Source of the DNA: Candidatus Omnitrophota bacterium
GTDB taxonomy: Bacteria > Omnitrophota > Gorgyraeia > Gygaellales > Profunditerraquicolaceae
Assembly: GCA_028715785.1 (NCBI GenBank)
Contig: JAQURC010000001.1
Location: forward strand, 140,766 to 204,765
Length of the DNA: 64,000 nucleotides
Direction: 5' to 3'
The notes beneath the pieces were generated by a model. It saw only the letters and a program-made list of their open reading frames with translations, searched no databases and had not been told where the DNA came from. Within the stretch, counting starts at the first letter, position 1, and each line of letters opens with the position of its first letter. The position numbers and the translations under genes were made by a program. This document shows positions 19,285 through 43,198 of the stretch, piece after piece.

Positions 19285-19369
19285 GGAGAGGTGGCAGAGT
19301 GGTCGAATGCGCGCGCTTGGAGAGCGCGTGACTCGCAAGGGTCCCAGGGTTCGAATCCCTGCCTCTCCG
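19285..19369 (+). tRNA. tRNA-Ser(GGA), the integration target whose 3' end is repeated downstream
   Basis: Acceptor GGAGAGG/CCTCTCC, anticodon loop TTGGAGA, T-arm AGGGTTCGAATCCCT. The 3' 15–25 nt recur at 33971, 40589 and 43174. Confidence 0.75.
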
Positions 19370-19561
19370 TTGTCTTATTTATGCTAAGCAAAAGCATAGC
19401 AACATATACCCGCCAAAATTACCGCAACTCCTATTAAAATCAGTTAGTTACATTGCAGGAAAAGCAAAGCCATTTCAAGATATGACAATATCTCTGGAAT
19501 GGCTTTTTTTGCTTTCTGGTGGTGTTTTGGTGGTGTTTTTGGTGAAAGACCAGTGAGAAGG

Positions 19562-20104
19562 ATGACTCCGGCGACAAGGTTGCTTCGCGATAGATTAGTA
19601 GGTAAATACCTGCATTTTTCTAAACGAAATAAGTTAGCGGATGACGGCTCATTTTATTGCGCTGATAAATACTTAATGGAGCAATTAGGCATTAGCAATA
19701 GTACGATTCAAAGAGCGCGTAGTTATTTAAAAGAAACCGGGGAAATTGATTATGTTATTGGCAAACATAAGGGTAATCCTACGCGGTACTGGATCATATC
19801 AAAGGGTATCAAAATGGAACCCTTTGGACAAGAGATAAAGGGTGTCAAAATGACTGCAAAGGGTGTCAATTTGGTTGTCAAAGGGTATCAAAATGAGACC
19901 CTCTATAATAATGAAGTAAAGAAGGAAGAAAGTAAAAAGGATATACCCGATGCCCTTTCTTTTACCGAAGAAGACAAAGAGGGGATAAGGGCTTTTGCTA
20001 AGTCATATGGGGATGAGAAAGCAATTAAAACCCTGTCAGATAAAGGCTATAATCCGGAATCAATAAGGCAGATACTTGAGGGCATGGCATCATGCAAAGA
20101 ATAA
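19562..20104 (+). CDS. Hypothetical DNA-binding / replication-initiator-like protein of the integrated element
   Basis: wHTH-like segment (LMEQLGISNSTIQRARSYLKETGEI), KG[IV]KM peptide repeats encoded by DNA iterons. The start is uncertain: the track start at 19499 lies inside a hairpin + T-run. Confidence 0.35.
   Translation: MTPATRLLRDRLVGKYLHFSKRNKLADDGSFYCADKYLMEQLGISNSTIQRARSYLKETGEIDYVIGKHKGNPTRYWIISKGIKMEPFGQEIKGVKMTAKGVNLVVKGYQNETLYNNEVKKEESKKDIPDALSFTEEDKEGIRAFAKSYGDEKAIKTLSDKGYNPESIRQILEGMASCKE
19800..19900 (+). repeat. Four tandem ~20-bp iteron-like direct repeats AAAGGGT(A/G)TCAAAATG inside the Rep-like gene
   Basis: Seen directly at about 19801, 19838, 19858 and 19879. Confidence 0.5.
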
Positions 20105-20214
20105 AGACAAATCAAGATATTCATAGCCAAAATAATGCACATTTTTTTGATACTAAATTCCAAATAATGGACACTTGACTGTGCACTCTTTATATTTACT
20201 CATGCGCATTAATT

Positions 20215-20320
20215 GCTATTTGCCTGCGGTAAGCCTTCGCGCAATTCTTCCAACAAGCCTTGCGAAGGCTACCGCATACCAAGCACCAAAAAAATCACTC
20301 AAAACCACTAAGGGAGGCTA
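20215..20320. repeat. Left arm of a 106-bp near-perfect inverted repeat
   Basis: The reverse complement of 21709..21814 matches 20215..20320 with a single mismatch (A/G at 20281). Confidence 0.8.
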
Positions 20321-20333
20321 AAGCCTAAAGAAG

Positions 20334-21110
20334 ATGAGAAAAGGAAGGGTTTGTAAAGAAGAACAGAAACGCAGGATTAAGTTGTTATTAAGATTTATAT
20401 TTACTTTCAAATATGCCACTAGAAACCAAGCTGATATATTCATTCAACAGATAATGAATATGACATATACTCGCAGGCTTATTGCCTATTGTTTAAAAGA
20501 GGGTTATCTCAAATCGTGCCGGGAGCGCTGGTCTAAAGTCAAGATCTATTACTTGACTAAAAAAAGCACGGATTTTATCTTTGAAGAAGAATGTTTTGCC
20601 GAAGATTATCGCTTTGAAAAAAGCTGCCTTGGCGTAAACACGTTTAACCTGCATAATATAGCAGTCGAAGTTTATTTCAAGTTGAAAAAGCTCCTGATTA
20701 TCAAAGAATGGTTCTGCGCGTGGGTTTTGAGGATAGGCGAGCATAAAAGGGCCCTAATCCCGGATAGCGTTATAGCGCTTCAGTCCGGAACAGTTATCGC
20801 CCTGGAAATCGAAACCCAAGTTAAGAAGCTTTCTGAGTTAAAGCATTTGATTGATATATATCGTTATGATATTGACAAAAAGCCCAAGTATGATGCTGTC
20901 TTAATGGTAATTGAATATAAGTTTGATTACGAAGGCATTAAAAAAAGGCTGTTTCACCTTGCGCCGGAATTTTGTTCCAGGACCTTCCTTTTGGCAGATC
21001 TAGATATGTTTAATCAAGGATTGTGTTTTTATGCAAATGAAGTCAGAAGCTTAGAAGAAGCGTTTAAGCTATTGGAAGAGAAAAGTAGAAGTTCACCTTT
21101 GATTTCTTAA
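20334..21110 (+). CDS. Hypothetical protein; possible PD-(D/E)XK-like / replication-relaxation-like protein
   Basis: IPDSVIAL....IALEIETQVKK resembles a restriction-endonuclease-like D...ExK core. Weak call. Starts 14 bp after the left inverted repeat. Confidence 0.35.
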   Translation: MRKGRVCKEEQKRRIKLLLRFIFTFKYATRNQADIFIQQIMNMTYTRRLIAYCLKEGYLKSCRERWSKVKIYYLTKKSTDFIFEEECFAEDYRFEKSCLGVNTFNLHNIAVEVYFKLKKLLIIKEWFCAWVLRIGEHKRALIPDSVIALQSGTVIALEIETQVKKLSELKHLIDIYRYDIDKKPKYDAVLMVIEYKFDYEGIKKRLFHLAPEFCSRTFLLADLDMFNQGLCFYANEVRSLEEAFKLLEEKSRSSPLIS

Positions 21111-21231
21111 AATAAGCCTGCCAAAATCCTTGCTAAAGGCACAAGCGCGCATTAAAATATTGTTGTTTAAGGCCTGAAGAAGGGCACTAATATTGTTTTA
21201 AGCTTTCGCTCCATATAACGCTAAATCTTAA

Positions 21232-21711
21232 ATGTGGAAAACCTACCAGTACATTGCCCGCCGTTATCCAACATGGTTAACTCGAGATGAAGCAAGGCGT
21301 TTAATTCTAGAGGCCCAAAACGGCTCAAAACAAAGTAAGGATGAACTTATTCTTCGACACATTGGGTTTCTAATTTTTAAAGTCCGTACAAAACTATTTC
21401 CTGGGGTACTTAAGCGATACGGAGAGGATATGCTTGCAGAGGTTATTTTACATGCTTATGAGAAAATCAATACTTATGATTTAAATTACTGCGATAAGCA
21501 GGGGAATCCTTTACCCGTCAAATTTACCACTTATATTTGGAAGGACATAGACTGGTTTATAATAAAATCACTAAAGAGGGAGTTTGGATTAAATAAGACG
21601 CATAAGGAATATTCCAAGAATGAAGAACTTTATGAAGAAGATGACGAATTCAACGCCTACAAAAAGAATAAAATTGATCACAGAAGAAACCAACAATGGA
21701 GGCCTATTTAG
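21232..21711 (+). CDS. Hypothetical protein, possibly sigma-70 region-2-like
   Basis: DELILRHIGFLIFKV....AEVILHAYEKINTYD loosely resembles a sigma region 2 signature. Its stop codon is the first bases of the right inverted repeat. Confidence 0.3.
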   Translation: MWKTYQYIARRYPTWLTRDEARRLILEAQNGSKQSKDELILRHIGFLIFKVRTKLFPGVLKRYGEDMLAEVILHAYEKINTYDLNYCDKQGNPLPVKFTTYIWKDIDWFIIKSLKREFGLNKTHKEYSKNEELYEEDDEFNAYKKNKIDHRRNQQWRPI

Positions 21712-21814
21712 CCTCCCTTAGTGGTTTTGAGTGATTTTTTTGGTGCCTGGTATGCGGTAGCCTTCGCAAGGCTTGTTGGAAGAATTGCGCGAAGGCTTAC
21801 CGCAGGCAAATAGC
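21709..21814. repeat. Right arm of the 106-bp inverted repeat
   Basis: See the left arm at 20215..20320. Confidence 0.8.
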
Positions 21815-21901
21815 TTTAAGTGCTTGGGGATAACTGGAAATAAACCTTGACATTTCTTCCCTAACGCTATACACTTATTAATAAATGTATAGCAAAAGGG
21901 A

Positions 21902-22510
21902 GTGTACATGGGTAATAGAGAAACAGAGCTTATAAATTTCCTTAAGAGAAAAAGTGGGCTAGCTAGTTACGCGGAAATAAAAGAAGCCGGTTTTAATAAA
22001 GCCCTTCTTAAGGTTAGCCTGAATTCCGGCCGCATTCAGAAAGTTGATCGTGCGCTGTATGAACTATCCGAAGGTATTTCAGTCTCGAACCCTGACTTGG
22101 TAGCTATTTCAATCAAGGCCCCAAAGGGTGTTGTATGCCTAGTTTCTGCTCTTGCTTTTCATGGAGCGACAACCGAGATTCCTCAATTTGTAGCTATAGC
22201 TATTCCCCGCGGCGCCCATGCCAATAAAATCAAGTATCCGCCAGTAAAGTTTTACCGTTTTGCTTCCAAAGCTTGGGAAGCTGGTATAGAAGAACATAAA
22301 ATTGAAGGCCACAAAATCAAAGTCTATAATCTTGCTAAAACAATTGCGGATTGCTTTAAATTCCGTAACAAAATCGGTATGGACGTTGCGCGTGAGGCTC
22401 TTAAGGTAGCTATAACAGAAAAGAAGATTCTCCCAAAAGACATTATGAAATATGCTAAGATCTGCCGTATTGATAGTATTATTAAACCGATACTGGAAAC
22501 AATGATATGA
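21902..22510 (+). CDS. abiEi: AbiEi-family antitoxin / transcriptional regulator (type IV TA)
   Basis: N-terminal wHTH (ELINFLKRKSGLASYAEIKEAGFNKALL...RALYEL) typical of AbiEi. Overlaps the next gene by 4 nt. Confidence 0.65.
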   Translation: MYMGNRETELINFLKRKSGLASYAEIKEAGFNKALLKVSLNSGRIQKVDRALYELSEGISVSNPDLVAISIKAPKGVVCLVSALAFHGATTEIPQFVAIAIPRGAHANKIKYPPVKFYRFASKAWEAGIEEHKIEGHKIKVYNLAKTIADCFKFRNKIGMDVAREALKVAITEKKILPKDIMKYAKICRIDSIIKPILETMI

Positions 22511-23421
22511 AAAAAGATATCACTAATATTCAAGCTTCTATTCGGACCAGGCTTAAAAATAAAGCTAAAGAAACAAATCGTCCGTTTGCAGAAATTCTGC
22601 AATATTACGGCATGGAAAGATTCCTTTATAGGTTTAGCCGTTCAAAATACGCAGATAAATTTATCTTAAAGGGAGCGCTTTTGTTTACAGTATGGCAGGT
22701 TCCTGAAAGGCGGATAACATTAGATATTGATTTCTTAGCGCGCTATGATAACAAGGTGGCTAGTATTGAGACAGTAGTTAGAGATATCTGTCAGGTGCCT
22801 GTTGATTCTGACGGGCTTATATTCGATTCAGAGACGGTTCAAGGGCGCAAGATTAAAGAAGACGCTGATTACGAAGGAGTCCGCGTGAAATTTATCGGAT
22901 TTCTGGAGCGTTCACGTATACATATGCAAATTGATGTGGGTTTTGGCGATATCATCTATCCGAAGCCCCAAGTGATTGATTATCCTACTATTCTAAGTTT
23001 GCCAAAACCGCATTTTAAAGGATATCCTGTGGAAAGTGTAGTTAGTGAAAAATTTGAGGCTATGGTTAAGCTTGGTCTTTTAAATAGCCGGATGAAAGAC
23101 TTCTATGATATCTGGCTTATGATACGGCAGTTTAATTTTAACGGATCGGATCTTGCCGAAGCACTAAAAAGAACATTTGAGCATCGTAAAACTAATATTC
23201 CCGCAGGAAAGCCATTATTCGCGGAAGAAATCTATGACGAAAAATCTGATCGTCAAACACTCTGGAAAGCGTTTTTAAGAAAAGGTAATATTAAACACGC
23301 ATCGGAAAAGCTGGCTATAACAGCAAAAGAGATAGAAAATTTTCTTATTAAACCGCTGGATGCTATTAATAAGTCGAAGAAGTTTATAGGCGCATGGAAG
23401 GCTCCTGGACCATGGAAATAG
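22507..23421 (+). CDS. abiEii: AbiEii/AbiGii-family nucleotidyltransferase toxin (DUF1814)
   Basis: N-terminus ...IRTRLKNKAKE..RPFAEILQYYGMERFLYRFS...FILKGALLF is characteristic of the family. Confidence 0.75.
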   Translation: MKKDITNIQASIRTRLKNKAKETNRPFAEILQYYGMERFLYRFSRSKYADKFILKGALLFTVWQVPERRITLDIDFLARYDNKVASIETVVRDICQVPVDSDGLIFDSETVQGRKIKEDADYEGVRVKFIGFLERSRIHMQIDVGFGDIIYPKPQVIDYPTILSLPKPHFKGYPVESVVSEKFEAMVKLGLLNSRMKDFYDIWLMIRQFNFNGSDLAEALKRTFEHRKTNIPAGKPLFAEEIYDEKSDRQTLWKAFLRKGNIKHASEKLAITAKEIENFLIKPLDAINKSKKFIGAWKAPGPWK

Positions 23422-23615
23422 CTTTAACTTTGGAATATAATATTTAATCCAAAGAAATAAGTATGTGGCCCAAGATTTTTACGAGCATATGCAATCAAGA
23501 AGAAAAGAAACCTTCATGAGCCGTAGTTCATAGAACAAAGACAAGTGAAGGTTTTTTATTTAACAATATAATCTAATAACTATGGTTCATTTGGTAGGGT
23601 TGAGAGGAGGACGTA

Positions 23616-25019
23616 ATGGCAAAATTAACAAAACCAATAGTTAGAGAAATTATTGATGATTTCGTTCAAGAGATTGAAAGGCGTAAAACGAAAGGACCTA
23701 AACCCTCGAAGGAAGTAATCAATTTTAGAAATGAATTAAAAACGGGATTCGAAAGAGATGTATGGTTAGTCCCAGCCGAACTATTGCTTTATAGAAAGGA
23801 TAATGGAAGAATTGCTTCCGATGTGTTGAATTATGAAAAAAACTTTGGTAAGCTCGATGAAAAAACAGAAGAAGGGCAAAAAATTATCAGGAAATTTCTT
23901 GAAGATAAAGACGAAGAAAAGACAAAAGAATTAATGCAATCTGTTAAACATGAAGGACAACGAGAGCCTGCGATTATTACCTGTGACGGGTTTCTTATTA
24001 ATGGCAATAGAAGAAAGATGGTTTTAGAAAAACTACATGGGCAAGCGCATGATATTTATATGAAAGTAGTGATTCTTCCGGGAAAAGATGACCAAGGAGG
24101 GTCGCCTTCTCAACTCGAGATAGAACAAATCGAAAATAGATATCAACTTCAAAGTGATGGAAAAGCAGAGTATTATGCATTTGATCGAGCATTGTCAATT
24201 AAAAGAAAAATGGCTTTGGGGATGAGTCTTGAAGATCAATTAAAAGATGATCCTGTTTTTGCAGGATTGGATGACAAAAAATTTAAGAAGGCTGTTAGGG
24301 ACCATTATGACGAATATCTTAAACCCTTAGAATGCATAGATAGATATTTAGCATTATTAGGTAGAGAAGAATTATACGGTACTATATCAACTGGAATGGG
24401 AGATAGAGAAGGAAGATGGCAAGCTTTTTTAGATTATTATAATTTTGTTTATAAAAAACTTGAGGATGCAAAACAAAGGATGGAATTAGGGGTTGAAGAT
24501 AAAGAGGTGGGTAAAATTGAGTCTGTGGCTTTTAAAATAATACGTTTGAGAGGGATCGAAGGTATTTCTGATATGTCAAAAGTTCATCAAGTAATGAGAA
24601 AACTTGGCCATTGGCTTAAGAATAGAGATGCAAAGAAAGAATTAATGGCTCTTGCTAATATTGGTTTTGAACTGCCAAAAAATGAATGTTGTGATAAGGA
24701 TGGTAATGAGTATGAAATGGACATGATTGACAGATTATGGTGTAACAAAAACAGAAGCGAAATTATAAGAAGGGTAAAAAAAGCCAAATTTTTAAGAGAT
24801 AATGACAATGAAAGGGAAATTACAATTATACTGCTTGAAAAGGCATTGGAAATATTAAATGACGATTCTCTTGATCCCGAGACCGTTCCATTTGACAGTT
24901 ATTTAAATGCTATGAAATCGGCGAGAGACATTGGAGCGAGAGCCAAAGAAATTGAAGCAGAATTTTATCATTTACAAAAAAAGAATAACGAATTTTTAAA
25001 GAACAAAAAATCAAAATGA
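23616..25019 (+). CDS. ParB/Srx-like nuclease-domain protein
   Basis: QREPAIITCDGFLINGNRRKMVLEKL resembles the ParB N-terminal motif (hydrophobic–GERR–A). Strong ribosome-binding site GAGGAGGA. Overlaps the next gene by 4 nt. Confidence 0.5.
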   Translation: MAKLTKPIVREIIDDFVQEIERRKTKGPKPSKEVINFRNELKTGFERDVWLVPAELLLYRKDNGRIASDVLNYEKNFGKLDEKTEEGQKIIRKFLEDKDEEKTKELMQSVKHEGQREPAIITCDGFLINGNRRKMVLEKLHGQAHDIYMKVVILPGKDDQGGSPSQLEIEQIENRYQLQSDGKAEYYAFDRALSIKRKMALGMSLEDQLKDDPVFAGLDDKKFKKAVRDHYDEYLKPLECIDRYLALLGREELYGTISTGMGDREGRWQAFLDYYNFVYKKLEDAKQRMELGVEDKEVGKIESVAFKIIRLRGIEGISDMSKVHQVMRKLGHWLKNRDAKKELMALANIGFELPKNECCDKDGNEYEMDMIDRLWCNKNRSEIIRRVKKAKFLRDNDNEREITIILLEKALEILNDDSLDPETVPFDSYLNAMKSARDIGARAKEIEAEFYHLQKKNNEFLKNKKSK

Positions 25020-26926
25020 TCTATATTTCATTTAAGGAAAATGCGTTAATTATTCCTGATGTTAAACAAAATCTAAGCGCTGAGCAAATAAGCCAGCTTG
25101 TCTGGTTTGGTTTAAAACGTCATCCCGATAACAGTTCAATCTTATTTAATCAGGTATCTGAAGAAATCTTTCTTAAAATAATAGATTACTTAGAAACTGA
25201 AAAAGTTAAGTTTGCTTTATCTAATGATGTAAAAAATATCTTAGAACGAATTAGGCTTAGTGAAGATCATTTCCGTGATCGGTCAAAAATGGCACAAGAA
25301 TTTAAAGATGGTAAATTAAGAAGTGAAGAAATCAAACAATTCTGCCAATTTGTATCTAAGCTTCCTCGGAAATTTAAGGTCCATCAAATAAAAGCGGCGT
25401 GTCATTTGTATCTTTTAAAAGATAGTGCAAATTTTTCTGTTCCTGGTAGCGGAAAAACATCGGTCGTTTTAGCGGTTTATGAAAAATTGCGAGTAGAAAA
25501 GAAAGTAAATGTTTTGTTTGTAGTGGGACCTCCTTCTTGTTTTGGGCCGTGGAGAAAGGAATTTGAAGCTACGCTTGGAAGGAAGCCTAAAGTCAAAATA
25601 CTCTCTGGTATAGGGCAGAAACATAGAATGAATATTTATTGGGACTATCCGGAAAACGCCGAATTATGCTTAACAACATTTCAAACATTATTAAATGACA
25701 GTCTTGCGGTTAAGCAATTTTTTAAGAGGAAGAATATCGACATATTTTTAGTAATAGATGAAGCGCATTACATAAAACAGGTAGGGGGGAATTGGGCAAA
25801 AGCTGTCTTAGATATCTCATCACTAGCTAAATGTAAATGCGTACTTACAGGAACACCTATGCCTAGAAGTTATACTGATGTTTTTAATATGTTCGATTTC
25901 TTATATGGTAAATATTCGCCCTTTTCATTACAAGAAAAGATTAAGGTCCAATGGCTAGAAAAGAAGAAAGATGACGAAAAAATAAGAAACATGCTTGATC
26001 AAAAAATTGGCCCTTTGTTTTATAGGGTGCGAAAAAGAGACCTAGGGTTATTGCCTCAGATTTTCCACCCCGAAAGATTAATTAAAATGAATAAATATGA
26101 GGAGCTAATTTATAAAGCAATTGAAAATAAAATCCTCAACTATTCAAAAGACGCCTTTCTTAACAATATTGAAACGATTATGCAATTAAGGAAAGGTAGG
26201 ATTATACGTTTACGGCAATGTGTATCTTATGCAGGATTACTTGCGAAGCCTATCGAAGATTACCCTGAGAATTTAATAAAAGGGGAAATTAACCTAAGAA
26301 AAATTATTCTTAACTATGATAAGCTTGAAAAACCGGCTAAGCTTGAATTATTACTTGAGATGGTTAAGAAATTCAATTCAGATAAAGAAAAAGTAATTGT
26401 TTGGGTTAATTTCATTGGGACGTTGGAATTATTAAGGAAAGCATTGCTAAAATCAGGAATCATTTGCGAAAAGATTTATGGAGCAACTCCGGTTGAAAAT
26501 GAAAAATTAGAAAATGCAATTACTAGGGAAAAAATTATCGATAAATTTAAGAAACAAAATAGCGGACTCGATGTTTTATTATTAAATCCTGCGGCTTGCG
26601 CTGAATCAATTTCACTCCATCAAACATGTTTTAGGGCGATTTACTACGATTTATCGTATAATTGTGCGCAGTATCTTCAGTCATTAGATAGAATCCACCG
26701 TGTAGGAGGTTCTGAACATAAGACAGCGCATTATTATTTCCTTCAATATAAGAATACAATCGATGAAGATATAAAAAGCAATTTGGATAAGAAAGTTATA
26801 AGAATGAATAAAATCTTTGAGAAAGACTATTGTATTTATTCTCTTGATATGTTTGAAGAAGATGGGGATTTGGCCGCATATGAAAGACTTTTTGGTCAGA
26901 GGAAGCAAACAATTAGAAAGAATTAA
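25016..26926 (+). CDS. SNF2-family (DEAH) helicase
   Basis: Motif I GSGKTS, II VIDEAHYIK, III LTGTPMP, VI LQSLDRIHRVGG. Confidence 0.8.
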   Translation: MIYISFKENALIIPDVKQNLSAEQISQLVWFGLKRHPDNSSILFNQVSEEIFLKIIDYLETEKVKFALSNDVKNILERIRLSEDHFRDRSKMAQEFKDGKLRSEEIKQFCQFVSKLPRKFKVHQIKAACHLYLLKDSANFSVPGSGKTSVVLAVYEKLRVEKKVNVLFVVGPPSCFGPWRKEFEATLGRKPKVKILSGIGQKHRMNIYWDYPENAELCLTTFQTLLNDSLAVKQFFKRKNIDIFLVIDEAHYIKQVGGNWAKAVLDISSLAKCKCVLTGTPMPRSYTDVFNMFDFLYGKYSPFSLQEKIKVQWLEKKKDDEKIRNMLDQKIGPLFYRVRKRDLGLLPQIFHPERLIKMNKYEELIYKAIENKILNYSKDAFLNNIETIMQLRKGRIIRLRQCVSYAGLLAKPIEDYPENLIKGEINLRKIILNYDKLEKPAKLELLLEMVKKFNSDKEKVIVWVNFIGTLELLRKALLKSGIICEKIYGATPVENEKLENAITREKIIDKFKKQNSGLDVLLLNPAACAESISLHQTCFRAIYYDLSYNCAQYLQSLDRIHRVGGSEHKTAHYYFLQYKNTIDEDIKSNLDKKVIRMNKIFEKDYCIYSLDMFEEDGDLAAYERLFGQRKQTIRKN

Positions 26927-34387: not shown

Positions 34388-34744
34388 ATGAATAGGAAAA
34401 CGTTAGGAGAGAGGATTCGAGAATTGAGAGCCCAAAGGGATTTCTCTCTTCGTGAATTCGCAAAAAAATTAGGTGGGCTTTCGGCGGCATTTCTATCTGA
34501 TGTAGAACTTGGCCGGCGCCATCCGTCTGAAAAGGTGCTAGTCGACATAGCTAGAGTACTTGATACAGCACTTGAAGAGTTACGAAACTATGATACTCGT
34601 GCACCGGTTGAAGATCTCAAACGTCTCGCGTCATCGAACCCTGCATATGGGCTTGCTTTTCGGAAATTAATTGATAAGAAGGTTAGCCCTGAAGATTTAA
34701 TGAAGCTTGCTGAAAAAACGTCCAAGAAAGACGGAAAAAAATGA
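34388..34744 (+). CDS. XRE-family HTH regulator (CapH-like)
   Basis: LGERIRELRAQRDFSLREFAKKLG....LSDVELGRRHPS HTH signature. Overlaps the downstream peptidase by 4 nt. Confidence 0.65.
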   Translation: MNRKTLGERIRELRAQRDFSLREFAKKLGGLSAAFLSDVELGRRHPSEKVLVDIARVLDTALEELRNYDTRAPVEDLKRLASSNPAYGLAFRKLIDKKVSPEDLMKLAEKTSKKDGKK

Positions 34745-35448: not shown

Positions 35449-35465
35449 TTTTTTTTTGCTAAAAT

Positions 35466-35506
35466 GTAAGCATCGTCAGCTTACGAAATAGTAACTTTTC
35501 TATTAT
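35466..35506 (+). promoter_or_regulatory. Palindrome GTAAGC-N7-GCTTAC overlapping a -10-like TATTAT upstream of the Ubl operon
   Basis: Seen in sequence at 35466-35484 and 35501-35506. Strong ribosome-binding site AGGAGGAGG at 35536-35544. Confidence 0.35.
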
Positions 35507-35548
35507 GCAGAAGACCCGGAAGGTTAAGATAAAAAGGAGGAGGTAAAA

Positions 35549-35794
35549 ATGGAACATGAAGAGCATCATCAAGGCGAGCAGAAGTATTTTGTCAATATTG
35601 AGGGTACGGATTATCCTTGGCATGAAGAGGACATTCTTACTGAAGAAATAAGGAAGCTGGGTAATTTGCCTCAGGATCTGCCTGTTGTTGAGGAATTTCC
35701 TGATGGTACTGAAATAACTCTTAGGGCAGGAGAGGTTGTTCATTTGAAGCCCGGTCATAGATTCGGTCGCGCCCCAAAGTTTAAAAGGGGCTAA
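35549..35794 (+). CDS. Small ubiquitin-like protein (multiubiquitin / BilA-like) ending in a C-terminal Gly
   Basis: 81 aa ending ...KFKRG-stop. Immediately followed by E2-like, JAB and E1 genes. Confidence 0.55.
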   Translation: MEHEEHHQGEQKYFVNIEGTDYPWHEEDILTEEIRKLGNLPQDLPVVEEFPDGTEITLRAGEVVHLKPGHRFGRAPKFKRG

Positions 35795-35797
35795 AGG

Positions 35798-36184
35798 GTG
35801 GAAGAAAGAATCGCTGAAGAAGTCCGCATGCTGAAGGATAAATATCCAAGCCTTCAGCATGGGGAAGGCTATGCATGGGTAATGATCCCGGATTTTAATT
35901 TACCGGAAGGATATAACCGTAAAAAGACAAGACTACTTTTTTTAATTTCAGGTTCATATCCACGTACATCCCCAGATAATTTTTATGTTGATGCAGGATT
36001 GAAGTTCGATAACAACAATCTACTGACAAATTACAGTGAGGGAGCTCAGGTACCGATAGAAGGATCGTGGGGTTGTTTCTCTTGGCATCCTGAAATATGG
36101 CAGCCGGTAGCCGAAATTAAAAAAGGAGATAACCTACTTACATTTATGAAATCTGTGAACATTAGGTTACGGGAGAAGAATTGA
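35798..36184 (+). CDS. E2-like ubiquitin-conjugating-fold protein (prokaryotic E2 family)
   Basis: 128 aa. Candidate catalytic Cys in WGCFSWHPEIW. GTG start. Its stop overlaps the JAB ATG. Confidence 0.5.
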   Translation: MEERIAEEVRMLKDKYPSLQHGEGYAWVMIPDFNLPEGYNRKKTRLLFLISGSYPRTSPDNFYVDAGLKFDNNNLLTNYSEGAQVPIEGSWGCFSWHPEIWQPVAEIKKGDNLLTFMKSVNIRLREKN

Positions 36185-36732
36185 TGCGGGTAATCCTGTT
36201 TTTAACAGAACAACAATACAACCTCGTACGGTCGCATCTTTTCAAAGGAAAAAAGGAGCAGGGGTGTTTCCTGTTTGTCAACAGTATCATGGATGCCCAG
36301 TTAATTGAGCTTAAAGTAAAGGATGTCCATAAGGTAGAAGCTGGTGGCTGGAGTTATCAAAGCGGATGTCATCTAGAGCTTGAAGAAAAAGAGAAAGTGA
36401 AGGTAATGTTAAAAGCACGAGAATACGGCTGCGATTTGATTGAATGCCACTCTCATCGATTTGGCGGATTAGCCACTTTTTCCCCGAGCGATATACATGG
36501 CTTGAGTGAATTTGTCCGATACATTTGGTGGAAATTGCCGGGTAAGATATACGGTGCCGTAGTATTTACTAAGAGTGATGTTCGGGGACAGATTTGGCTG
36601 CCTAAACAGGAGAATTCCGTATTTATAAGTGAAATCAAGGTTATTGATAATAAGGGCAACTTTAAAAGATTATGCGGCGTTCCTATTAAAAAATCTTTTT
36701 TTAACATCATTAAGAGGCGGAATAATGATTGA
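36184..36732 (+). CDS. JAB/MPN (JAMM) metalloisopeptidase
   Basis: Canonical JAMM motif ECHSHRFGGLATFSPSD (HxHx7Sx2D) plus an upstream Glu. Confidence 0.8.
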   Translation: MRVILFLTEQQYNLVRSHLFKGKKEQGCFLFVNSIMDAQLIELKVKDVHKVEAGGWSYQSGCHLELEEKEKVKVMLKAREYGCDLIECHSHRFGGLATFSPSDIHGLSEFVRYIWWKLPGKIYGAVVFTKSDVRGQIWLPKQENSVFISEIKVIDNKGNFKRLCGVPIKKSFFNIIKRRNND

Positions 36733-37609
36733 ATCACGGGAGCAATTCTCTAGGCAAATTCTAGCCTTTGGTGCAGAAGGACAAGCAGCCATTATGAATA
36801 CTAAGATTGGAATTGTTGGTTTGGGTGGCATGGGGTCATGCGTTGTGCAAATGCTAAGTCATTTAGGAATCCAGGAATTTATGCTTCTTGACGATGACCG
36901 AGTTGAAAAGTCGAATTTGAATAGGCTTGTTGGCGCTACAAGAGAAGATGTCATAAATAAGACCCTCAAGGTTGAGGTGGCCCAACGAGTCATTAAATCT
37001 ATAAATCCTGAAGCCAAGATAACTTCGCTAGGGAATCTGCGTACTGCGGAAGCCATAGAAGTCCTTTCGACTTTTCCTGATGTGATTTTCGGTTGCGTAG
37101 ATAATGATAGCGCGCGTATGATCCTTACTGATCTTGCAGCAGCATATAAGAAGACATTGGTTGATTGTGCAACTGAAATAGATTTAAAAGGTGATAATGG
37201 CATAAGTTTCGGGGGCAGGGTAGTTGTCGCTCAGCCCGGGGACTTCTGTTTATGGTGCGCAAATCAGATTGATCCGCAAATAGCAAATGAGGAGCTTGAG
37301 AGCGAGCAGGAAAAATCTTTTCGTCGGCATCATGGTTATGGCTTGGGAGCGGAAGTAGTGGCTCCTGCAGTGATGTCTTTAAATGGGGTTATAGCTGGTT
37401 TGGCCGTTACAGAGTTTATTATGTTAATTACCGGCATGAGAAAGCCGGAACGTATGCTGACTTATAAGGGAACGCGAGGAATTGTTGTTGCGACTAAAGA
37501 TGTTAAGAAGCCGGGATGTTTAGTGTGCGATTCATTAATCGGTAAGGGAGATAAGGCAGGTTTAAAGAGATACTTAAGGTCAAATTTACCAAAAGATTTG
37601 CCCGAATAG
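36725..37609 (+). CDS. E1-like ThiF/MoeB-family adenylyltransferase
   Basis: Rossmann IGIVGLGGMGS, LLDDDRVEKSNLNR, two CxxC pairs (CLWC, CLVCD). Overlaps the JAB gene by 8 nt. Confidence 0.8.
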   Translation: MIESREQFSRQILAFGAEGQAAIMNTKIGIVGLGGMGSCVVQMLSHLGIQEFMLLDDDRVEKSNLNRLVGATREDVINKTLKVEVAQRVIKSINPEAKITSLGNLRTAEAIEVLSTFPDVIFGCVDNDSARMILTDLAAAYKKTLVDCATEIDLKGDNGISFGGRVVVAQPGDFCLWCANQIDPQIANEELESEQEKSFRRHHGYGLGAEVVAPAVMSLNGVIAGLAVTEFIMLITGMRKPERMLTYKGTRGIVVATKDVKKPGCLVCDSLIGKGDKAGLKRYLRSNLPKDLPE

Positions 37610-37725
37610 AATAGGGATGCATATAAATAACAAGAAAGGAGCTAATAGCGGCCAAGAAAAACTTCCATAAAATTCCTAAGTTAATTATCCTAAAATTAAA
37701 TAAAATTGCTTCTGATCAGATTGTT

Positions 37726-38604
37726 GTGGGTTGCGTTGAAACTTTTTCAGCAAACGATATTAAGCAGGGATTATTAGGTCATTTATCTATTAAACTAACT
37801 GATTCCGGCTTATCTTTTCTCCCTAGTATTTTACCGTCTCAAAATCGTGGGAAATACAGTGGCCGTAATAAAAATGGTTATGAGATAAAAAGGCGGGATC
37901 TACCCATGGAATCTTATACCCATAGTGTTGAGGCGCCTAATTATGGAGACAGAGGAAGGGGAACTCACGATGTAAGTTGGACTAAGGAGAGATATCAAAA
38001 GGAATTTCACGCACCCGAATCTCTAAAGATTAGAATTGAATCTCCTAATAATGCTCTGGGACAGGATAAATATGTGATTAAGTTTGAGGTAGAAGAAGTC
38101 ATGGGTAAGAAATCTCGTGATTTTAAGGAGCGGCTACTGAAAAACTTAAATATTTTACAGGAAAACATTGGCTCATGCGATGTTCTGCCTGCGGGAAGGA
38201 GTCTCGAGGAATATTTAGAAACATTGCGTGTTTCGTGGGAAATATTGCCTTCAGGAACACGCGAAGAGACGTTGGCAAGGCTAAGCAAGGGGCGGATTCT
38301 TTCAGAACAAGAGCGGAAAGATATGGAAGATCGATTTGATTTTTTTCAGACTTTAAAACCATCAAAGTTTGTTTATGGTATGAGTGGATCAGAAAGGTAT
38401 CTTGGTGCTTTATTACGCGATGATCTTGTTGTTTTTGAAAATATGGAATATGGGAATGCTATCTATGTGATGTTTGAAGATTGGCAGACTTTGAGCCAAA
38501 AAAGCCGAGTTGAATTACTCTCAGGAAGGTATGGAAAGAATTTTGAGCGAATTGTGCATAGAAAAGGATGGAAGGACAATGTAAAAAAAACAATAAAGAC
38601 ATAG
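37726..38604 (+). CDS. Hypothetical protein downstream of the E1 gene (no recognisable motif)
   Basis: 292-aa ORF with a GTG start. Could be an accessory or effector component. Confidence 0.4.
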   Translation: MGCVETFSANDIKQGLLGHLSIKLTDSGLSFLPSILPSQNRGKYSGRNKNGYEIKRRDLPMESYTHSVEAPNYGDRGRGTHDVSWTKERYQKEFHAPESLKIRIESPNNALGQDKYVIKFEVEEVMGKKSRDFKERLLKNLNILQENIGSCDVLPAGRSLEEYLETLRVSWEILPSGTREETLARLSKGRILSEQERKDMEDRFDFFQTLKPSKFVYGMSGSERYLGALLRDDLVVFENMEYGNAIYVMFEDWQTLSQKSRVELLSGRYGKNFERIVHRKGWKDNVKKTIKT

Positions 38605-38816
38605 AGCTATCATAGAAAGGGGTTAAGATGTCGATAATTATTTCAGTTAGAACTCCCTAATGGGGTTAGGTTTAGTATTAATGGGATAGAAGATTGGTTG
38701 AAAAGCAGGAAAGTTAGGGAAGATGTAGTTATAAATTTAATCAAAACACTTTTATTCCTTAAAGATTGAGGTATAATAAATTAAAGTTCATTCCTTTTTA
38801 ATGAAAGGAGTTCAGA

Positions 38817-38993
38817 ATGGCAACTCTAACGTTAGGTAAAAGACAGCGACCTTTAGTAAAAACTTTTCATGAAGCTAAGAAAGACATAGTTGTAAGAAGC
38901 TATGTTCCGGCAGGTATACAGAGGTTATCTTCGACTTCTGTTAGTACTGGTAAACTAGTTATTGTCATGAAAAAAATAAGTAGACATCGGTAA
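38817..38993 (+). CDS. Possible small ORF (58 aa)
   Basis: ATG preceded by AAAGGAG. Below the ORF-track length cutoff. No homology call possible. Confidence 0.2.
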   Translation: MATLTLGKRQRPLVKTFHEAKKDIVVRSYVPAGIQRLSSTSVSTGKLVIVMKKISRHR

Positions 38994-39013
38994 GAGTATA
39001 ATTACTCTCTTGT

Positions 39014-40471
39014 ATGAAATATACTAATAATGATGAAAAAAGATATTTTCCGAAAGAAAAGAATGAAAATAAAGACTATAGAACAGAATGGAGAAGAGAT
39101 TTTGCTCGAATAATCCATTCTTCCTCATTCCGAAGACTGCAAGGAAAAACTCAATTATTTCCTGGTAACGAAAGTGATTTTTTCAGAAACCGCCTCACCC
39201 ATTCATTAGAAGTAGCTCAAATCGCAAAATCTATAACATTAAAACTAAATAACGACCTAAGGAAGTCGAGAAAAAAATATTTCATTGAACCCGATATCGT
39301 TGAAATTGCTGGTCTTGCCCATGACATTGGACATCCTCCTTTTGGTCATTTCGGTGAAGAAGTGTTAGATAGGGGCATGGTGGATTACGGAGGATTCGAA
39401 GGCAATGCTCAAGCTCTCAGGTTATTAGCTACTGTTGAGAAAAAAACTAATCCTTCCTCGACACGTTATGGTATTCTGGATAATGGAAGAGATACTCGTG
39501 TTGGTTTAAATCTTACAGCCCGTTGCTTAGCGTCAATTATAAAATATGACCAAGAGATTCCCAGAGAAAGTACACAAAGAAATCATCTACTCGAGACCGG
39601 AATTATAAAGAAAATTTCGCCTATTAAAGGTTACTATCAAGAAGAAAAAGCCAAAGTTGATTTTATTAAAGCTGCTGTTGTTGGAAAAACAAAACTTACA
39701 AAAGGATTGAAAACAATTGAATGCCAAATAATGGATCTTGCAGATGATATTGCCTATTCGACATATGATCTTGAAGATTCATTCAAAGCGGAATTTATAA
39801 AACCCATTGATATTATGTCTGTTAATGACAATATTCTTGATGAAGTTGTGAGAGTAATAAATGAGCGTTTAAATATAAATTTGAATAAAGGTAATATTCA
39901 AGAAGTAATCTATGAAATATTTAAAGATATATTTGAGGTTCCTTACGCAATAAAAGGTATTTTGAAAAATCCGTCTAAAAAATTTCTTCAGAATCTACAT
40001 AACTATGGATTGAGAGATGCAAATGTGTCCTCAAATAGGTTTGCTCAAGACGGATATTATAGGACAGATCTTACATCTGGTCTCGTGAATAGTTTTATTC
40101 AAAGTATAGAAATTAATCATATTGATAAAGAAACCCCAGCCCTGTCAACTATAAAAATCAATCCGAAACACCTGTTGGAAATTGAAATCTTAAAAGTATT
40201 AACTTATGAATGTCAAATTCAATCTCATAAACTCAAGATTGTTGCGTATAGGTGCAAGGATATTATTGAGTTTATCTTTAATACATTGATGGCAGAGAAA
40301 GGATTTCAATTACTTCCTTCAGATTTTAAATCAATTTATGAAAAGATTGATTCAAATAAAAGACCTCGCATCATATGTGATTTTATAGCAGGGATGACCG
40401 ATAGATACGTGCTTGAATTTTATGGAAGGTTAACTTCTGAAAATCCTCAGACTATTTTTAAACCTTGTTGA
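39014..40471 (+). CDS. dGTPase-family HD-domain triphosphohydrolase
   Basis: FRRLQGKTQLFP....RLTHSLEVAQIAKS....AHDIGHPPFGH matches the dGTP triphosphohydrolase HD motif order. Confidence 0.8.
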   Translation: MKYTNNDEKRYFPKEKNENKDYRTEWRRDFARIIHSSSFRRLQGKTQLFPGNESDFFRNRLTHSLEVAQIAKSITLKLNNDLRKSRKKYFIEPDIVEIAGLAHDIGHPPFGHFGEEVLDRGMVDYGGFEGNAQALRLLATVEKKTNPSSTRYGILDNGRDTRVGLNLTARCLASIIKYDQEIPRESTQRNHLLETGIIKKISPIKGYYQEEKAKVDFIKAAVVGKTKLTKGLKTIECQIMDLADDIAYSTYDLEDSFKAEFIKPIDIMSVNDNILDEVVRVINERLNINLNKGNIQEVIYEIFKDIFEVPYAIKGILKNPSKKFLQNLHNYGLRDANVSSNRFAQDGYYRTDLTSGLVNSFIQSIEINHIDKETPALSTIKINPKHLLEIEILKVLTYECQIQSHKLKIVAYRCKDIIEFIFNTLMAEKGFQLLPSDFKSIYEKIDSNKRPRIICDFIAGMTDRYVLEFYGRLTSENPQTIFKPC

Positions 40472-40474
40472 GCT

Positions 40475-40542
40475 TGTGCCCAGAATGTGTTCATTCGAGT
40501 GAAAACAATCTGAAGAAACTGTACGATTTCTGTATACCAAAT
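40475..40542 (+). repeat. Conserved ~68-bp block, copy 1
   Basis: GTGCCCAGAATGTG...AAACAATCTGAAGAAACTGTACGATTTCTGTATACCAAAT. Nearly identical to 43060-43126. Confidence 0.6.
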
Positions 40543-40588
40543 CGGTTGTATTAACGTAACTTGTTGATTATAATTACCTTGTGAGTGT

Positions 40589-40613
40589 CAGGGTTTATTT
40601 CCCTGCCTCTCCG
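40589..40613 (+). repeat. attR-like repeat: 25-nt imperfect copy of the tRNA-Ser(GGA) T-arm/acceptor 3' end
   Basis: CAGGGTTTATTTCCCTGCCTCTCCG versus the tRNA's CAGGGTTCGAATCCCTGCCTCTCCG. Confidence 0.65.
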
Positions 40614-40753
40614 CCAATTAAGAAATGGGGCGTCTTTGAAGAAGGGACGGAAGCGAGCTTCCGTCGAAAAATTGAGGCGGCGCTTTTTTAAAATATTCTT
40701 ACACTACATTTCTTATTTTATGATATAATGTAGTGTAAAAGGAGAAAGTAGGA

Positions 40754-41059
40754 ATGAAGGTGTTACAGGGCATACTATCAGAGAGTAAAGAATACTATTT
40801 AGACATTAAGAAAAAAATAGAAAAGAGGCTAGTTAACCTTCCTATTGGGAGCATTAAGGAAAGAGAGATATCCGGGAAGAGATATTATTATTTGCAGTTT
40901 CGTAAAGATAAAAAAGTTATTCAGAAGTATCTGGGAAAAAATAAGCCGGAAGAAATCATTAGGCAGATAAGAGAGCGTAATGTTTTAAGGGGGGAGTTAA
41001 AGAAGGTGAACGAGGCTTTGAAGATAGTTAAAAGATCCGAGGGTAAAAAGCGTGGTTGA
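40754..41059 (+). CDS. Small basic protein, upstream partner of the nucleotidyltransferase
   Basis: 101 aa. Overlaps the next gene by 8 nt. No firm motif. Confidence 0.35.
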   Translation: MKVLQGILSESKEYYLDIKKKIEKRLVNLPIGSIKEREISGKRYYYLQFRKDKKVIQKYLGKNKPEEIIRQIRERNVLRGELKKVNEALKIVKRSEGKKRG

Positions 41060-41738
41060 ACCGATTAGGAGAATCTTAAAGGTATTTGCCGATAACGGCC
41101 TTTTTGAAGAAGGTGTTGAGCTTATCGGCAGTTGGTGTTTTAAGTTGTACCAGGATTACCTGGGAGTAAGAAAGTTTCCCTTAAGCAGCCTCGATGTTGA
41201 TTTCTTGATTCCCGTTCCTTTCCATGGCAAAAAGCATTTGGGCTTTATAGAACAATTAGAGGATTTAGGGTTTGAGGCGGATTTTAAACGAGACGGTTCA
41301 TTATTTTTATGGAATGCGGATTTAAAAATAGAGTTTATAACAGTTGAGAAAAGCGGAGGGACTGACAAGGCGATAAGAATTAAGAAACTCGGTATCGATG
41401 CTATTCCTCTAAGGCGCGTTGGGTTTCTTTTGGATGGATCGGTAAGCATAACGGATGCAGGCCTAAGAATAAAAGTTCCTTCGCCGGTTCGTTTTTGTCT
41501 TCATAAACTGATTATTGCGCCACTAAGAAAGAAGCCGGATAAGAACTTAAAAGACTTACAACAGGCTATTTATACGTCTACAATCGTAGACAAGAGAGAA
41601 ATGTGGCAAATGTTCCTTTCTTTACCTAAGAAATGGCAGCAAACTGTTTTGAGGTCGATAGATAAGGCTGAAGGAGAGTTACCATTACTTAAGGAAGATA
41701 TAGATAAACTTAGGCTTACACTACAGAATGTGAAATAA
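41052..41738 (+). CDS. Nucleotidyltransferase-fold (pol-beta superfamily) protein
   Basis: GS....SSLDVDF (hG[GS] x(n) DxD) motif. Confidence 0.5.
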   Translation: MVEPIRRILKVFADNGLFEEGVELIGSWCFKLYQDYLGVRKFPLSSLDVDFLIPVPFHGKKHLGFIEQLEDLGFEADFKRDGSLFLWNADLKIEFITVEKSGGTDKAIRIKKLGIDAIPLRRVGFLLDGSVSITDAGLRIKVPSPVRFCLHKLIIAPLRKKPDKNLKDLQQAIYTSTIVDKREMWQMFLSLPKKWQQTVLRSIDKAEGELPLLKEDIDKLRLTLQNVK

Positions 41739-41754
41739 TAGAGGTTGTAGTGTA

Positions 41755-41940
41755 ATAACTGCTCGGTGAGGACGCTGGATGCTGCAGCCGCCCCCCACCC
41801 GGCTGCAGCATCCAGCTGCGCCGCACACGCATTGCATTAGCAAGAAGGCCGCCGGCCCAGGCGGCCGCCAAGTGAGGCTTTGCCCAAGCAAAGCCGAACG
41901 GTGAAACACAAGATACGGGAGCCGCCCAGGCGGCGGGACA
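41755..41940. other. GC-rich, highly palindromic ~190-bp segment (possible structured ncRNA or recombination site)
   Basis: 16-bp perfect hairpin CTGGATGCTGCAGCCG / CGGCTGCAGCATCCAG, plus GGCCGCC/GGCGGCC, GGCTTTGC/GCAAAGCC and GCCGCC/GGCGGC hairpins. Confidence 0.3.
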
Positions 41941-42059
41941 TATTGATAGATAGATTAAGGTGCGTTAAAGATTGTTAGAACATATTGGTAAACGCACCGA
42001 TAATTTTTAGTTGGTTTTAAAGCGTACATATAAATAGTAACACTAATCTGAGGTGAGAA

Positions 42060-42962
42060 ATGAAAAAGATAGCTGTTTTATTATTCATAGCAATATTTGC
42101 TAGTGGGTGCGCTACATTCCCCACACAACAAGTTAAATCAATTTGGCCGCAACCATCTAGTCAGGTTAAGTGGTATTGGTCAAATTGGCAGATGCTCTCT
42201 AGCGCGGATGAAGCAATTGGGGTTTTAAAAAATCTCCAACAAAATTTTGTTGAATATGCCGCTGGGCAGCCTTTTAAAACATTTGATGTGGATAAATATG
42301 GATTACGCGTAAAGTGGGAGTGGACCGAAACATCGCAGACTACTGAATATGTTCCTACCTATGGAGGGTCTTTCTTTGGTTCGACTTATGTGCCTTATTA
42401 TGGCGGGACTAATCAGACACGCACCAATACCAGTCAGTATGCAGGGGCGTTTGTAATTCCTTTTGCTGAAGTTTCCGATATATGGATGGCCCATGTTCCG
42501 GGTTTACCTCGTGAATACAAATGGCAGATTTCAGTTTCTTTGGGAGACAAGCCTATTGTTAATCTGCGTGCTCCTGATGAGCAAACAGTCCGACAACTGG
42601 GTAATGCTATTGCTACCTTAAGCCGCGAACAAGGCCGTATTCTTCCCCGCTGCCTCTTCGGGATGACAGTTTTCTCGCTAACTCCAGAACAGTCAGCAGA
42701 GCTTGTACTTAGCCCGGGGACTGGTGTTTTGGTCGTTAATGTAGATGTAGGTGGCCCGGCAGAGAAGGCGGGCGTGCTTTTTCTAGATGTAATTTTGGAA
42801 GTAGACGGCCAGCCTGTAAAAAATAATGAAGAATTAAATGCCCGGTCTTTAAATAAGAAAAGCGTAAAATTTAAAATTTTACGCCGCCAAAAGATTACCG
42901 ATGAGACAGGAAAGACCAACTTACAAAATATCGAGGTTTTTCTTTCCGTGAATGTTGGATAA
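42060..42962 (+). CDS. Lipoprotein (lipobox LFIAIFASGC) of unknown function
   Basis: Signal peptide + Cys lipobox. C-terminal region has a PDZ-like G-rich segment. Confidence 0.5.
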   Translation: MKKIAVLLFIAIFASGCATFPTQQVKSIWPQPSSQVKWYWSNWQMLSSADEAIGVLKNLQQNFVEYAAGQPFKTFDVDKYGLRVKWEWTETSQTTEYVPTYGGSFFGSTYVPYYGGTNQTRTNTSQYAGAFVIPFAEVSDIWMAHVPGLPREYKWQISVSLGDKPIVNLRAPDEQTVRQLGNAIATLSREQGRILPRCLFGMTVFSLTPEQSAELVLSPGTGVLVVNVDVGGPAEKAGVLFLDVILEVDGQPVKNNEELNARSLNKKSVKFKILRRQKITDETGKTNLQNIEVFLSVNVG

Positions 42963-43059
42963 TAGAAAGATTTGAGGCGGGATTTCGCTAGATAAAAGAT
43001 TAAGGTGTTCAAAAACTCGACTAATTAGGGCTGGGTTTAACCATTCAGTCCTTTTGTTT

Positions 43060-43126
43060 GTGCCCAAAATGTGCCCAAATAAAGGGAAACAATCTGAAAA
43101 AACTGTATGATTTCTGTATACCAAAT
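43060..43126 (+). repeat. Conserved ~67-bp block, copy 2
   Basis: GTGCCCAAAATGTG...AAACAATCTGAAAAAACTGTATGATTTCTGTATACCAAAT. Confidence 0.6.
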
Positions 43127-43173
43127 GAGTTTTGCAGCTATAACCTCTTGCTATAATAGCGTTTGGAAAAGGC

Positions 43174-43198
43174 GGGTTTAGTTCTCCCTGCCTCTCCG
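43174..43198 (+). repeat. attR-like repeat: imperfect copy of the tRNA-Ser(GGA) 3' end
   Basis: GGGTTTAGTTCTCCCTGCCTCTCCG. Confidence 0.65.

Follow-up and report, generated by a model that had tools for sequence, protein, structure and literature searches.

The 23.8 kb directly behind a tRNA-Ser(GGA) gene in a 64,000-nucleotide stretch of the Candidatus Omnitrophota contig JAQURC010000001.1 (the window, by which we mean this whole stretch) most probably arose by repeated site-specific integration into the 3′ end of that gene, a reading to which we give a probability of roughly 0.8. Three elements, designated A, B and C in order from the tRNA, are stacked here; A appears to be self-sufficient, and B and C, which have no integrase, would be units of a second attachment (att) family that resemble cis-mobilizable elements (CIMEs). 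Repeated integration was put forward in the original prediction, made from the letters of this DNA, and is now supported by the non-random nature of the repeats, an integrase and excisionase with a matching arm motif in A, a conserved module that in other contigs follows xis-int pairs, downstream repeats that match the tRNA of the species that carries them, and a lowered G+C content.

The tRNA-Ser(gga) gene was called by ARAGORN at 19284-19370, and direct reading placed it at 19285-19369 with a 3′ end of ...CAGGGTTCGAATCCCTGCCTCTCCG. Its terminal 14-mer, TCCCTGCCTCTCCG, is present in four exact copies, all on the forward strand (starting at 19356, 33970, 40600 and 43185), where shuffled sequence gives an expectation of 0.02 matches and none of 100 shuffles reached five, so that the three downstream recurrences first reported are borne out. 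Allowing one mismatch adds a single match in the window, at 60682, where tRNA-Ser(gct) has its genuine 3′ end, and no further core copies were found inside 19.4-43.2 kb at up to 3 mismatches. The spacings from core to core are 14,614 bp for A, 6,630 bp for B and 2,585 bp for C, in agreement with the proposed sizes of about 14.6, 6.6 and 2.6 kb. With the last 14 nt of the tRNA gene as the attachment core, the tRNA copy becomes the attL of the array. Both boundaries of A carry an exact 15-mer, ATCCCTGCCTCTCCG, at 19355 and 33969, as direct repeats of the tRNA 3′ end; the second of these (repeat 1) was correctly recognized as exact, but it occupies 33969-33983 instead of starting at 33971 and sits 81 nt, not 84, past the integrase stop codon, which ends at 33887. 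Imperfect 25-mers had been described at the two distal junctions, and the copy at 40589-40613 (repeat 2) does match at 21 of 25 bases, with all four mismatches in the T-loop and both halves of the T-stem intact, whereas the copy at 43174-43198 (repeat 3) requires a 1-2-nt indel and matches without gaps over the 14-mer alone. The G+C content is 36.2% in A, 38.4% in B and 41.5% in C, compared with 45.6% upstream and 42.9% in the downstream flank.

The whole window has no recombinase besides the gene at 32787-33887, which is preceded by a 69-aa HTH_17-like excisionase candidate; as predicted, only the first element has an integrase and xis, and neither Pfam, PADLOC nor tblastn gave a recombinase in 33984-43198, that is, in B and C. 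This xis/int pair is intact-looking and lies at the right end of A, and the translation of the integrase, IntA, shows TGRR, HYFR and FYSH motifs. In the 64 kb there are just four occurrences of the 11-mer TGGTGGTGTTT (19517, 19528, 33918 and 34065), each within ∼170 nt of the A cores: two copies lie 148-169 nt to the right of the tRNA core, and repeat 1 has one copy 42 nt to its left and another, which carries a mismatch, 82 nt to its right. Such a placement is the pattern expected of arm-type integrase sites, and we regard these copies as putative binding sites of IntA. A tyrosine integrase, repeats at both boundaries and an arm motif on both sides are the marks of an element integrated at a tRNA gene, and with all of them present A appears to be a complete integrative element. 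A small integrase-less unit in L011 (we number the loci and contigs compared with the window L) carries a similar GGTGTTAAAA repeat beside its tRNA repeat.

Features of the tRNA-Ser(GGA) array and its right flank (window coordinates)
Feature	Position	Strand	Basis and remarks
tRNA-Ser(GGA)	19285-19369	+	ARAGORN, sequence, 14-mer search; last 14 nt (19356-19369) form the attachment core
Element A	19370-33983	+	14.6 kb; candidate integrative element with defence cargo; core copies, GC, gene content
Replication-initiator-like gene	19499-20104	+	PHROG replication initiator / O-like / DnaD-like, E 6e-8
TGGTGGTGTTT, two tandem copies	19517-19538	+	A left arm; putative IntA arm-type sites
AbiEi; AbiEii	21902-22510; 22507-23421	+	PADLOC E 1e-67 and 4e-99; Pfam AbiEii
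Five-gene cluster	23616-30309	+	Pfam, PADLOC; unclassified candidate defence system
cI-like HTH repressor	31992-32411	-	Pfam HTH_3, PHROG repressor; divergent from xis-int
xis candidate	32581-32790	+	69 aa; weak Pfam HTH_17
Tyrosine integrase IntA	32787-33887	+	Pfam Phage_integrase over full domain; PHROG integrase E 1e-21
TGGTGGTGTTT	33918-33928	+	A right arm, putative site; one-mismatch copy at 34065-34075, just beyond the core
Repeat 1	33969-33983	+	Exact 15-mer of tRNA 3′ end; putative attR of A and left boundary of B; no module upstream
Element B	33984-40613	+	6.6 kb; no recombinase
Intrinsic terminator	34022-34054	+	13-bp stem, 39 nt past repeat 1
TGTATACCAAGTGTATACC	34127-34147	+	Two copies of the TGTATACC motif also found in right-end modules; putative B left-arm sites
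CapH-like HTH; CapP-like M78 peptidase	34382-34744; 34741-35448	+	Pfam; PADLOC capP E 4e-7
Ubl (Multi_ubiq), E2 (Prok-E2_E), JAB, E1 (ThiF) operon	35549-37609	+	Pfam; PADLOC JAB, E1-E2, weak BilD
Defence-type dGTPase	39014-40471	+	PADLOC E 9e-119; Pfam HD + HD_assoc
B right-arm module	40474-40613	+	nhmmer 108 bits, E 3e-31; alignment
Element C	40614-43198	+	2.6 kb; no recombinase
C genes: DUF6788; NTP_transf_8; PDZ lipoprotein	40754-41059; 41052-41738; 42060-42962	+	
C right-arm module	43058-43198	+	nhmmer 91 bits; extended -10 (TGcTATAAT), 14-nt core (repeat 3)
Patatin-like phospholipase	43242-44918	+	Pfam; first gene of the presumed chromosomal flank

Repeats 2 and 3 are each preceded by ∼140 nt of mutually homologous sequence (75% over ∼145 aligned columns), a module that a profile search did not find at repeat 1. 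From the B and C arms we derived a gapped pattern, TGTATACCAA-N45-75-core, which matched 22 metagenome contigs, and an nhmmer profile built from these matches returned 27 sites in metagenome and Omnitrophota DNA with E values of 1e-21 to 1e-32, among them one in an Omnitrophota genome, L032, as well as second copies 1.0-2.1 kb apart in L089, L094 and L100. The module is non-coding and ∼115-140 nt long, and its consensus reads, in order, a GTGCCCA direct repeat (in a subset), CTGTAYGATTTCTGTATACCAAA, GTTGCA, a 17-nt spacer, an invariant TATAAT, a T-arm-like hairpin and the core, which is an exact 14-mer in nearly all copies. In B the order is a GTGCCCA repeat, CTGTA..TGTATACCAA repeats, the promoter-like TTGTAT-N17-TATAAT, the hairpin and the 14-nt core of repeat 2.

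In L085 and L096 the module begins 23 nt past the stop codon of a 362-aa tyrosine integrase, IntM, which is ∼26% identical to IntA and is preceded by a 60-aa HTH_17 xis, and in L083, L102 and L084 one cargo gene lies between the integrase and the module. Elsewhere (L097, L101, L098 and L032) a tRNA-Ser(GGA) gene is followed by 1.1-3.7 kb of integrase-less cargo closed by a module, the cargo being radical SAM/SPASM genes, a MazE-like pair, an ABC-3 transporter operon and an unknown 592-aa protein. The downstream repeats, in turn, track the host: L011 and L012 repeat the 3′ ends of their own tRNA-Ser(GGA) exactly (...CTGCTTCTCCGCCA and ...CTATCTCTCCGCCA), and the module core of L032 shares the C-to-T change of its tRNA, from which it differs at one position. 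Given that the repeat matches the tRNA of its own species, the repeats are attachment sites, and together with the adjacency of modules to xis-int pairs and the units that start at the tRNA itself, this excludes ordinary conserved intergenic sequence, the explanation against which the original prediction had asked to be checked, and identifies the module as an attachment arm, in all likelihood the integrase-proximal arm of a second element family. In other contigs the module core is directly followed by a ∼100-nt left-end motif set containing CTTGTGCCCA, an order that looks like an attP-like junction between tandem units. As judged by their arms, B and C appear to belong to an att/integrase family other than that of A, which means that IntA is not an obvious helper for them.

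Other identities of the module were considered and rejected. Short ORFs (open reading frames) of 29 and 32 aa in this stretch raised the possibility that it is the remnant of a small CPxC protein or of the 3′ end of an integrase gene, but indels or premature stop codons interrupt the frame in L094, L095 and L088, and the module stretch has no resemblance to integrase C termini. A tRNA-like RNA or known RNA family was likewise rejected, with no match in Rfam and no 5′ acceptor strand; the 3′ half of the hairpin is invariant. Two kinds of recurrent junction were seen besides. In L093 (2413-2515) and L094 (76-165, both in module-oriented, reverse-complement coordinates), units of 76-89 nt lie between the module core and a degenerate second core, GCCCTGCCTCTCCG or a near variant; the sequence between the cores is conserved, and these units may be excision scars or miniature elements. 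A CATTGTTGACGCTCAGGCGAACCCT flank follows two cores 478 nt apart in L087 (module-oriented 1447-1950) and recurs in L085 (module-oriented ∼5150), making it a further recurrent junction type.

All 21 distinct modules share the invariant TATAAT, with GTTG placed 17 nt before it, and this -10/-35 arrangement is directed outward across the core. Canonical sigma-70-type sites precede serS and tRNA-Lys in the same genome. In 20 of 21 cases the ORF that follows the module has the same orientation, and it sometimes begins 25-60 nt from the core; in the window the C module ends 44 nt before the patatin start codon. The module may thus carry an outward promoter that keeps downstream genes expressed, and patatin may be transcribed from the C module.

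In the mechanism that we propose, integrase-mediated insertions would target the last 14-15 nt of the tRNA gene, and each newcomer would restore the tRNA with its own core copy, shift older elements distally and leave a core at every junction, with the left end of each element providing a terminator behind the tRNA. Element A would presumably excise on its own. B and C would move only with an IntM-type enzyme acting in trans, or as passengers in a composite excised between outer att sites. The module promoter would transcribe the next unit, or here patatin, and in a circular form it would serve the unit's own genes.

Several observations weigh against this account. Neither an empty tRNA-Ser(GGA)-to-patatin junction nor a circular junction was found, the closest genomes being too divergent for the ancestral site, and tblastn detected no IntM-type integrase within these 64 kb. 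The left end of C is homologous to the sequence that follows the modules of L083, L103 and L101; it lacks the TGTATACC and GTGCCCA motifs, so that C may be without a functional left arm, and its G+C content is near that of the downstream flank. As to the promoter, nearly all genes of the region lie on the forward strand, which makes the co-orientation of the next ORF weak evidence, the -35 box agrees with the consensus at only 3 of 6 positions, which is why a generic promoter scan does not call the module, and at some left ends a terminator stands between the module and the next gene. Look-ups of exact proteins (patatin, the gene upstream of the tRNAs, the first genes of B and C, and IntA) returned nothing, or 2-2.8 kb SRR22315506 contigs with the same arrangement. 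The nearest relatives have a SerS that is at most 86% identical. With no empty site or excision product obtained, it is by inference that we speak of mobility throughout.

The strongest competing explanation is that B and C are inert wreckage, once-complete elements that lost their integrase by deletion and became fixed in the chromosome, with the repeats left as functionless scars. For streptococcal tandems, decay of this kind into CIMEs is described as the usual course (PMC5704250), and the lack of a recombinase in B and C, of IntM in the window and of recognizable left-arm motifs in C, as well as a frameshifted cargo gene in L101, would all fit such a history. The original prediction left B and C as either mobilized in trans or decaying; they are indeed integrase-less, but arms as well conserved as those adjacent to integrases argue against simple decay. 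The modules of integrase-less units score 95-112 bits, compared with 91-98 for those beside integrases, 10 of 10 units bounded on both sides lack a recombinase yet keep a full module around unrelated and mostly intact cargo, and exact cores persist in nearly all copies. These scores favour retained function over decay, and wreckage seems to us a rather unlikely history for B and C. With regard to the CIME class itself, genes for integration or transfer are missing from B and C, and the retention of attL and attR is seen for B in its cores, right arm and left-arm motifs, and for C in part, as left-arm motifs are missing there.

A bolder extension, which we offer only tentatively and consider distinctly less probable than the integration history itself, is that the module-ended integrase-less units form a dedicated Omnitrophota cassette system and not wreckage, consisting of 1-7-kb units with an arm bearing an outward promoter, mobilized in trans by IntM and stacked as co-oriented arrays behind tRNA-Ser(GGA). 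Were this so, the cassettes would carry defence, toxin-antitoxin, envelope-modifying or transporter genes, the promoter would keep the displaced downstream unit or host gene expressed after each insertion, and the whole would amount to an integron-like platform for gene capture made from lambda-type att arms and a tRNA attB. Besides the tRNA-adjacent cargo listed above, module contigs carry PMT_2 glycosyltransferases, polysaccharide deacetylase, GDSL/TPR proteins and a RES toxin.

It is improbable that the array works as an integron does, with IntA capturing and shuffling module-ended cassettes downstream of itself. The layout of L084 speaks for it, as it mirrors that of the window with an IntA-like integrase, 83 nt, a plain core, a 1.5-kb GDSL cassette and a module with its core; this combination therefore recurs although the two integrases are only 40% identical, and the cassettes are small, co-oriented and mostly integrase-less. 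The same order, however, is the automatic outcome of an A-type element entering the tRNA site in front of older units, the arm motif set of the module differs from that of A, and the modules of L083, L085 and L102 are coupled to IntM and not to IntA. Nor are the modules attC-like imperfect palindromes of the kind that ends each cassette in an integron, with its IntI-type integrase beside attI: they are made up of direct repeats, a promoter-like region and a tRNA core, and they go with lambda-type xis-int pairs. That module and core are a dispersed regulatory or portable promoter like a miniature inverted-repeat transposable element, resembling the tRNA by chance and with no role in recombination, is very hard to credit, since for all that the module is promoter-like, tightly placed between co-oriented genes and found in many contexts, its core tracks each host's own tRNA-Ser(GGA), modules stand directly behind xis-int pairs, the first unit always begins at the tRNA itself with all copies in tRNA orientation, and repeat 1 has the core and IntA arm motifs without a module.

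The cargo of the three elements was described in the original prediction as nearly all defence-related, which holds for AbiE, the helicase/methyltransferase cluster, the Ubl-E2-JAB-E1 operon, the dGTPase and NTP_transf_8, but not demonstrably for the PDZ lipoprotein of C and several genes of A; the cargo of C is not clearly defensive. In A, an AbiEi antitoxin and an AbiEii nucleotidyltransferase are adjacent with a 4-nt overlap, the arrangement of an AbiE abortive-infection system or type IV toxin-antitoxin. The cluster that follows encodes a 467-aa unknown protein, an SNF2 helicase, an NOV_C / PD-T4-1-like protein, a D12 methyltransferase and a PD-(D/E)XK + RNaseH-fold (Cas4-like) nuclease; no single named PADLOC system matched, and it may be an undescribed defence system. 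A sigma-like small gene and a DUF2130 protein are also present. To judge from its replication-initiator-like gene, A probably replicates; four 21-nt iteron-like repeats (AAAGGGTRTCAAAATG...) lie inside this gene at 19801-19900, where they resemble the origin embedded in a lambda O-type initiator gene. When ten proteins of A, B and C were compared with PHROG, no capsid, terminase, packaging or hijacking genes, as expected of a prophage or satellite, came to light, and the only matches were to a replication initiator, regulators, an integrase and, weakly, a MazG-like protein. A viral origin was rejected, as neither the arm pattern nor IntA had relatives in IMG/VR.

Element B begins with a terminator that is kept through compensatory changes in the homologous left ends of L084 and L101. 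The CapH/CapP-like pair at 34382-35448 heads the operon for ubiquitin-like (Ubl) protein, E2, JAB and E1, and by analogy with what is described for the operons of cyclic-oligonucleotide-based antiphage signalling systems and Bub operons this suggests expression inducible by DNA damage. Such regulators are present in 31% of Bub operons, which are defined (as Bub, 6E) by Ubl, E2 and E1 plus the DUF6527 protease BubE (PMC11601596). Pfam gave no DUF6527 match in any B protein, and we have not filed the operon as Bub because it lacks this defining protein. Ubl, E2, JAB and E1 are separate genes here, in a Bil-like order with only a weak match to BilD. A 292-aa protein of unknown function accompanies this operon and the dGTPase.

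On the chromosomal side, five tRNA genes were called by ARAGORN between 13.9 and 19.4 kb, tRNA-Ser(gga) being the last. The SerS encoded among them (16034-17302) is 86% identical to that of the closest GTDB species representative, and nearly all of its closest matches are metagenome-assembled genomes of Candidatus Omnitrophota. The order tRNA-Arg(tcg), tRNA-Lys(ctt), serS, a 238-aa gene, tRNA-Ser(tga) and tRNA-Ser(cga) is kept in relatives, and synteny stops there. The 17 kb past 43198 are of housekeeping type, with patatin, two-component proteins, FadL, radical SAM, pseudopilins and glycogen phosphorylase, and run to tRNA-Arg(acg) (60057), tadA and tRNA-Ser(gct); these genes are the reason for taking 43198 as the right boundary of the array. 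An island reaching tRNA-Arg(acg) at 60 kb was rejected, as the genes of 43.2-60 kb are of housekeeping type and the core does not recur among them. L005 has tRNA-Ser(cga) and tRNA-Arg(acg) separated by only ∼600 nt, and its tRNA-Ser(GGA) is without a repeat.

Further variation was seen around the tRNA-Ser genes. Between tRNA-Ser(tga) and tRNA-Ser(cga) in the window, an ORF of ∼340 aa (18131-19156, forward strand) gives a weak LAGLIDADG_3 and HTH match; its homologue in L005 is 45% identical and adjoins tRNA-Ser(gct), and it may be a homing-endonuclease-like gene moving among tRNA-Ser genes. Inserts of 4-5.5 kb in the Omnitrophota relatives L006, L011 and L012 split tRNA-Ser genes that are adjacent in other relatives, so that the whole tRNA-Ser cluster looks like a variable region. 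Among the tRNAs of these loci, consistent 3′-end repeats belong to tRNA-Ser(GGA) only, except for one at tRNA-Ser(tga) of L012, where a similar repeat lies 167 nt away (12081-12262). In the same locus the 3′ end of tRNA-Ser(GGA), together with ∼30 nt of downstream flank, is duplicated 162 nt away (18088-18300). Both duplications are gene-free miniature insertions.

Tandem accretion with integrase-less, att-bounded units is already established, and what is new here is the host phylum and the conserved promoter-like arm module. The precedents reviewed in PMC5704250 are ICESt1/ICESt3 of Streptococcus thermophilus and the tRNA-Lys islands of S. agalactiae, where CIMEs are likewise stacked at a tRNA 3′ end with att at every junction, one unit has an integrase, its neighbours have none but keep att, and composite excision is possible. 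Our array differs in having no conjugation or mobilization genes and integrase-less units that bear the arm of an integrase family other than the neighbour's, and many of the related units are only 1-3.7 kb long with one to few genes and an arm with a conserved promoter-like element. In Dehalococcoides, another small-genome lineage of uncultivated type, 15 islands at ssrA without an integration module are proposed CIMEs (PMC3146451); these too are tandem islands behind one small-RNA gene, with a ∼20-bp 3′-end repeat and extra conserved sequence upstream of the repeats. Their target, however, is the transfer-messenger RNA gene, a serine recombinase lies at attL and the cargo consists of reductive dehalogenases, compared with defence or envelope genes here.

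The tycheposons of Prochlorococcus are tyrosine-recombinase elements at tRNA genes, tRNA-Ser included, with replication modules (10.1101/2020.12.28.424599), a type that element A may resemble by analogy; as described there, newcomers push older elements into the island, and partial tRNAs and remnants are scattered. A promoter-bearing arm module and abundant integrase-less mini-units, by contrast, do not figure in the passages of that report that bear on these points. What the locus shares with integron arrays is a single integrase gene followed by small co-oriented cassettes, each closed by a conserved recombination module; it differs in attachment at a tRNA 3′ end, in lambda-type arms with direct repeats in place of attC hairpins, and in a promoter-like element per module as opposed to one Pc. 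For Omnitrophota themselves, a preprint reports many hypervariable and mobile-element loci, and its passages on integrase, defense, tRNA, island and mobile describe neither the tRNA-Ser(GGA) site nor the module (10.64898/2026.06.07.730766).

Omnitrophota are known almost only from metagenomes, and gene exchange among them is largely inferred. Taken together, this locus and the 27 module sites point to tRNA-Ser(GGA) as a recurrent landing pad in the phylum, and they define two att/integrase families with recognizable arm motifs. The module and its core also provide a sequence handle with which variable cargo, such as defence systems, may be found in fragmentary assemblies. The conservation of the arm module hints at trans-mobilizable cassettes, and if the integrase-less units prove mobile, they would amount to a natural cassette system that is compact and brings its own promoter.

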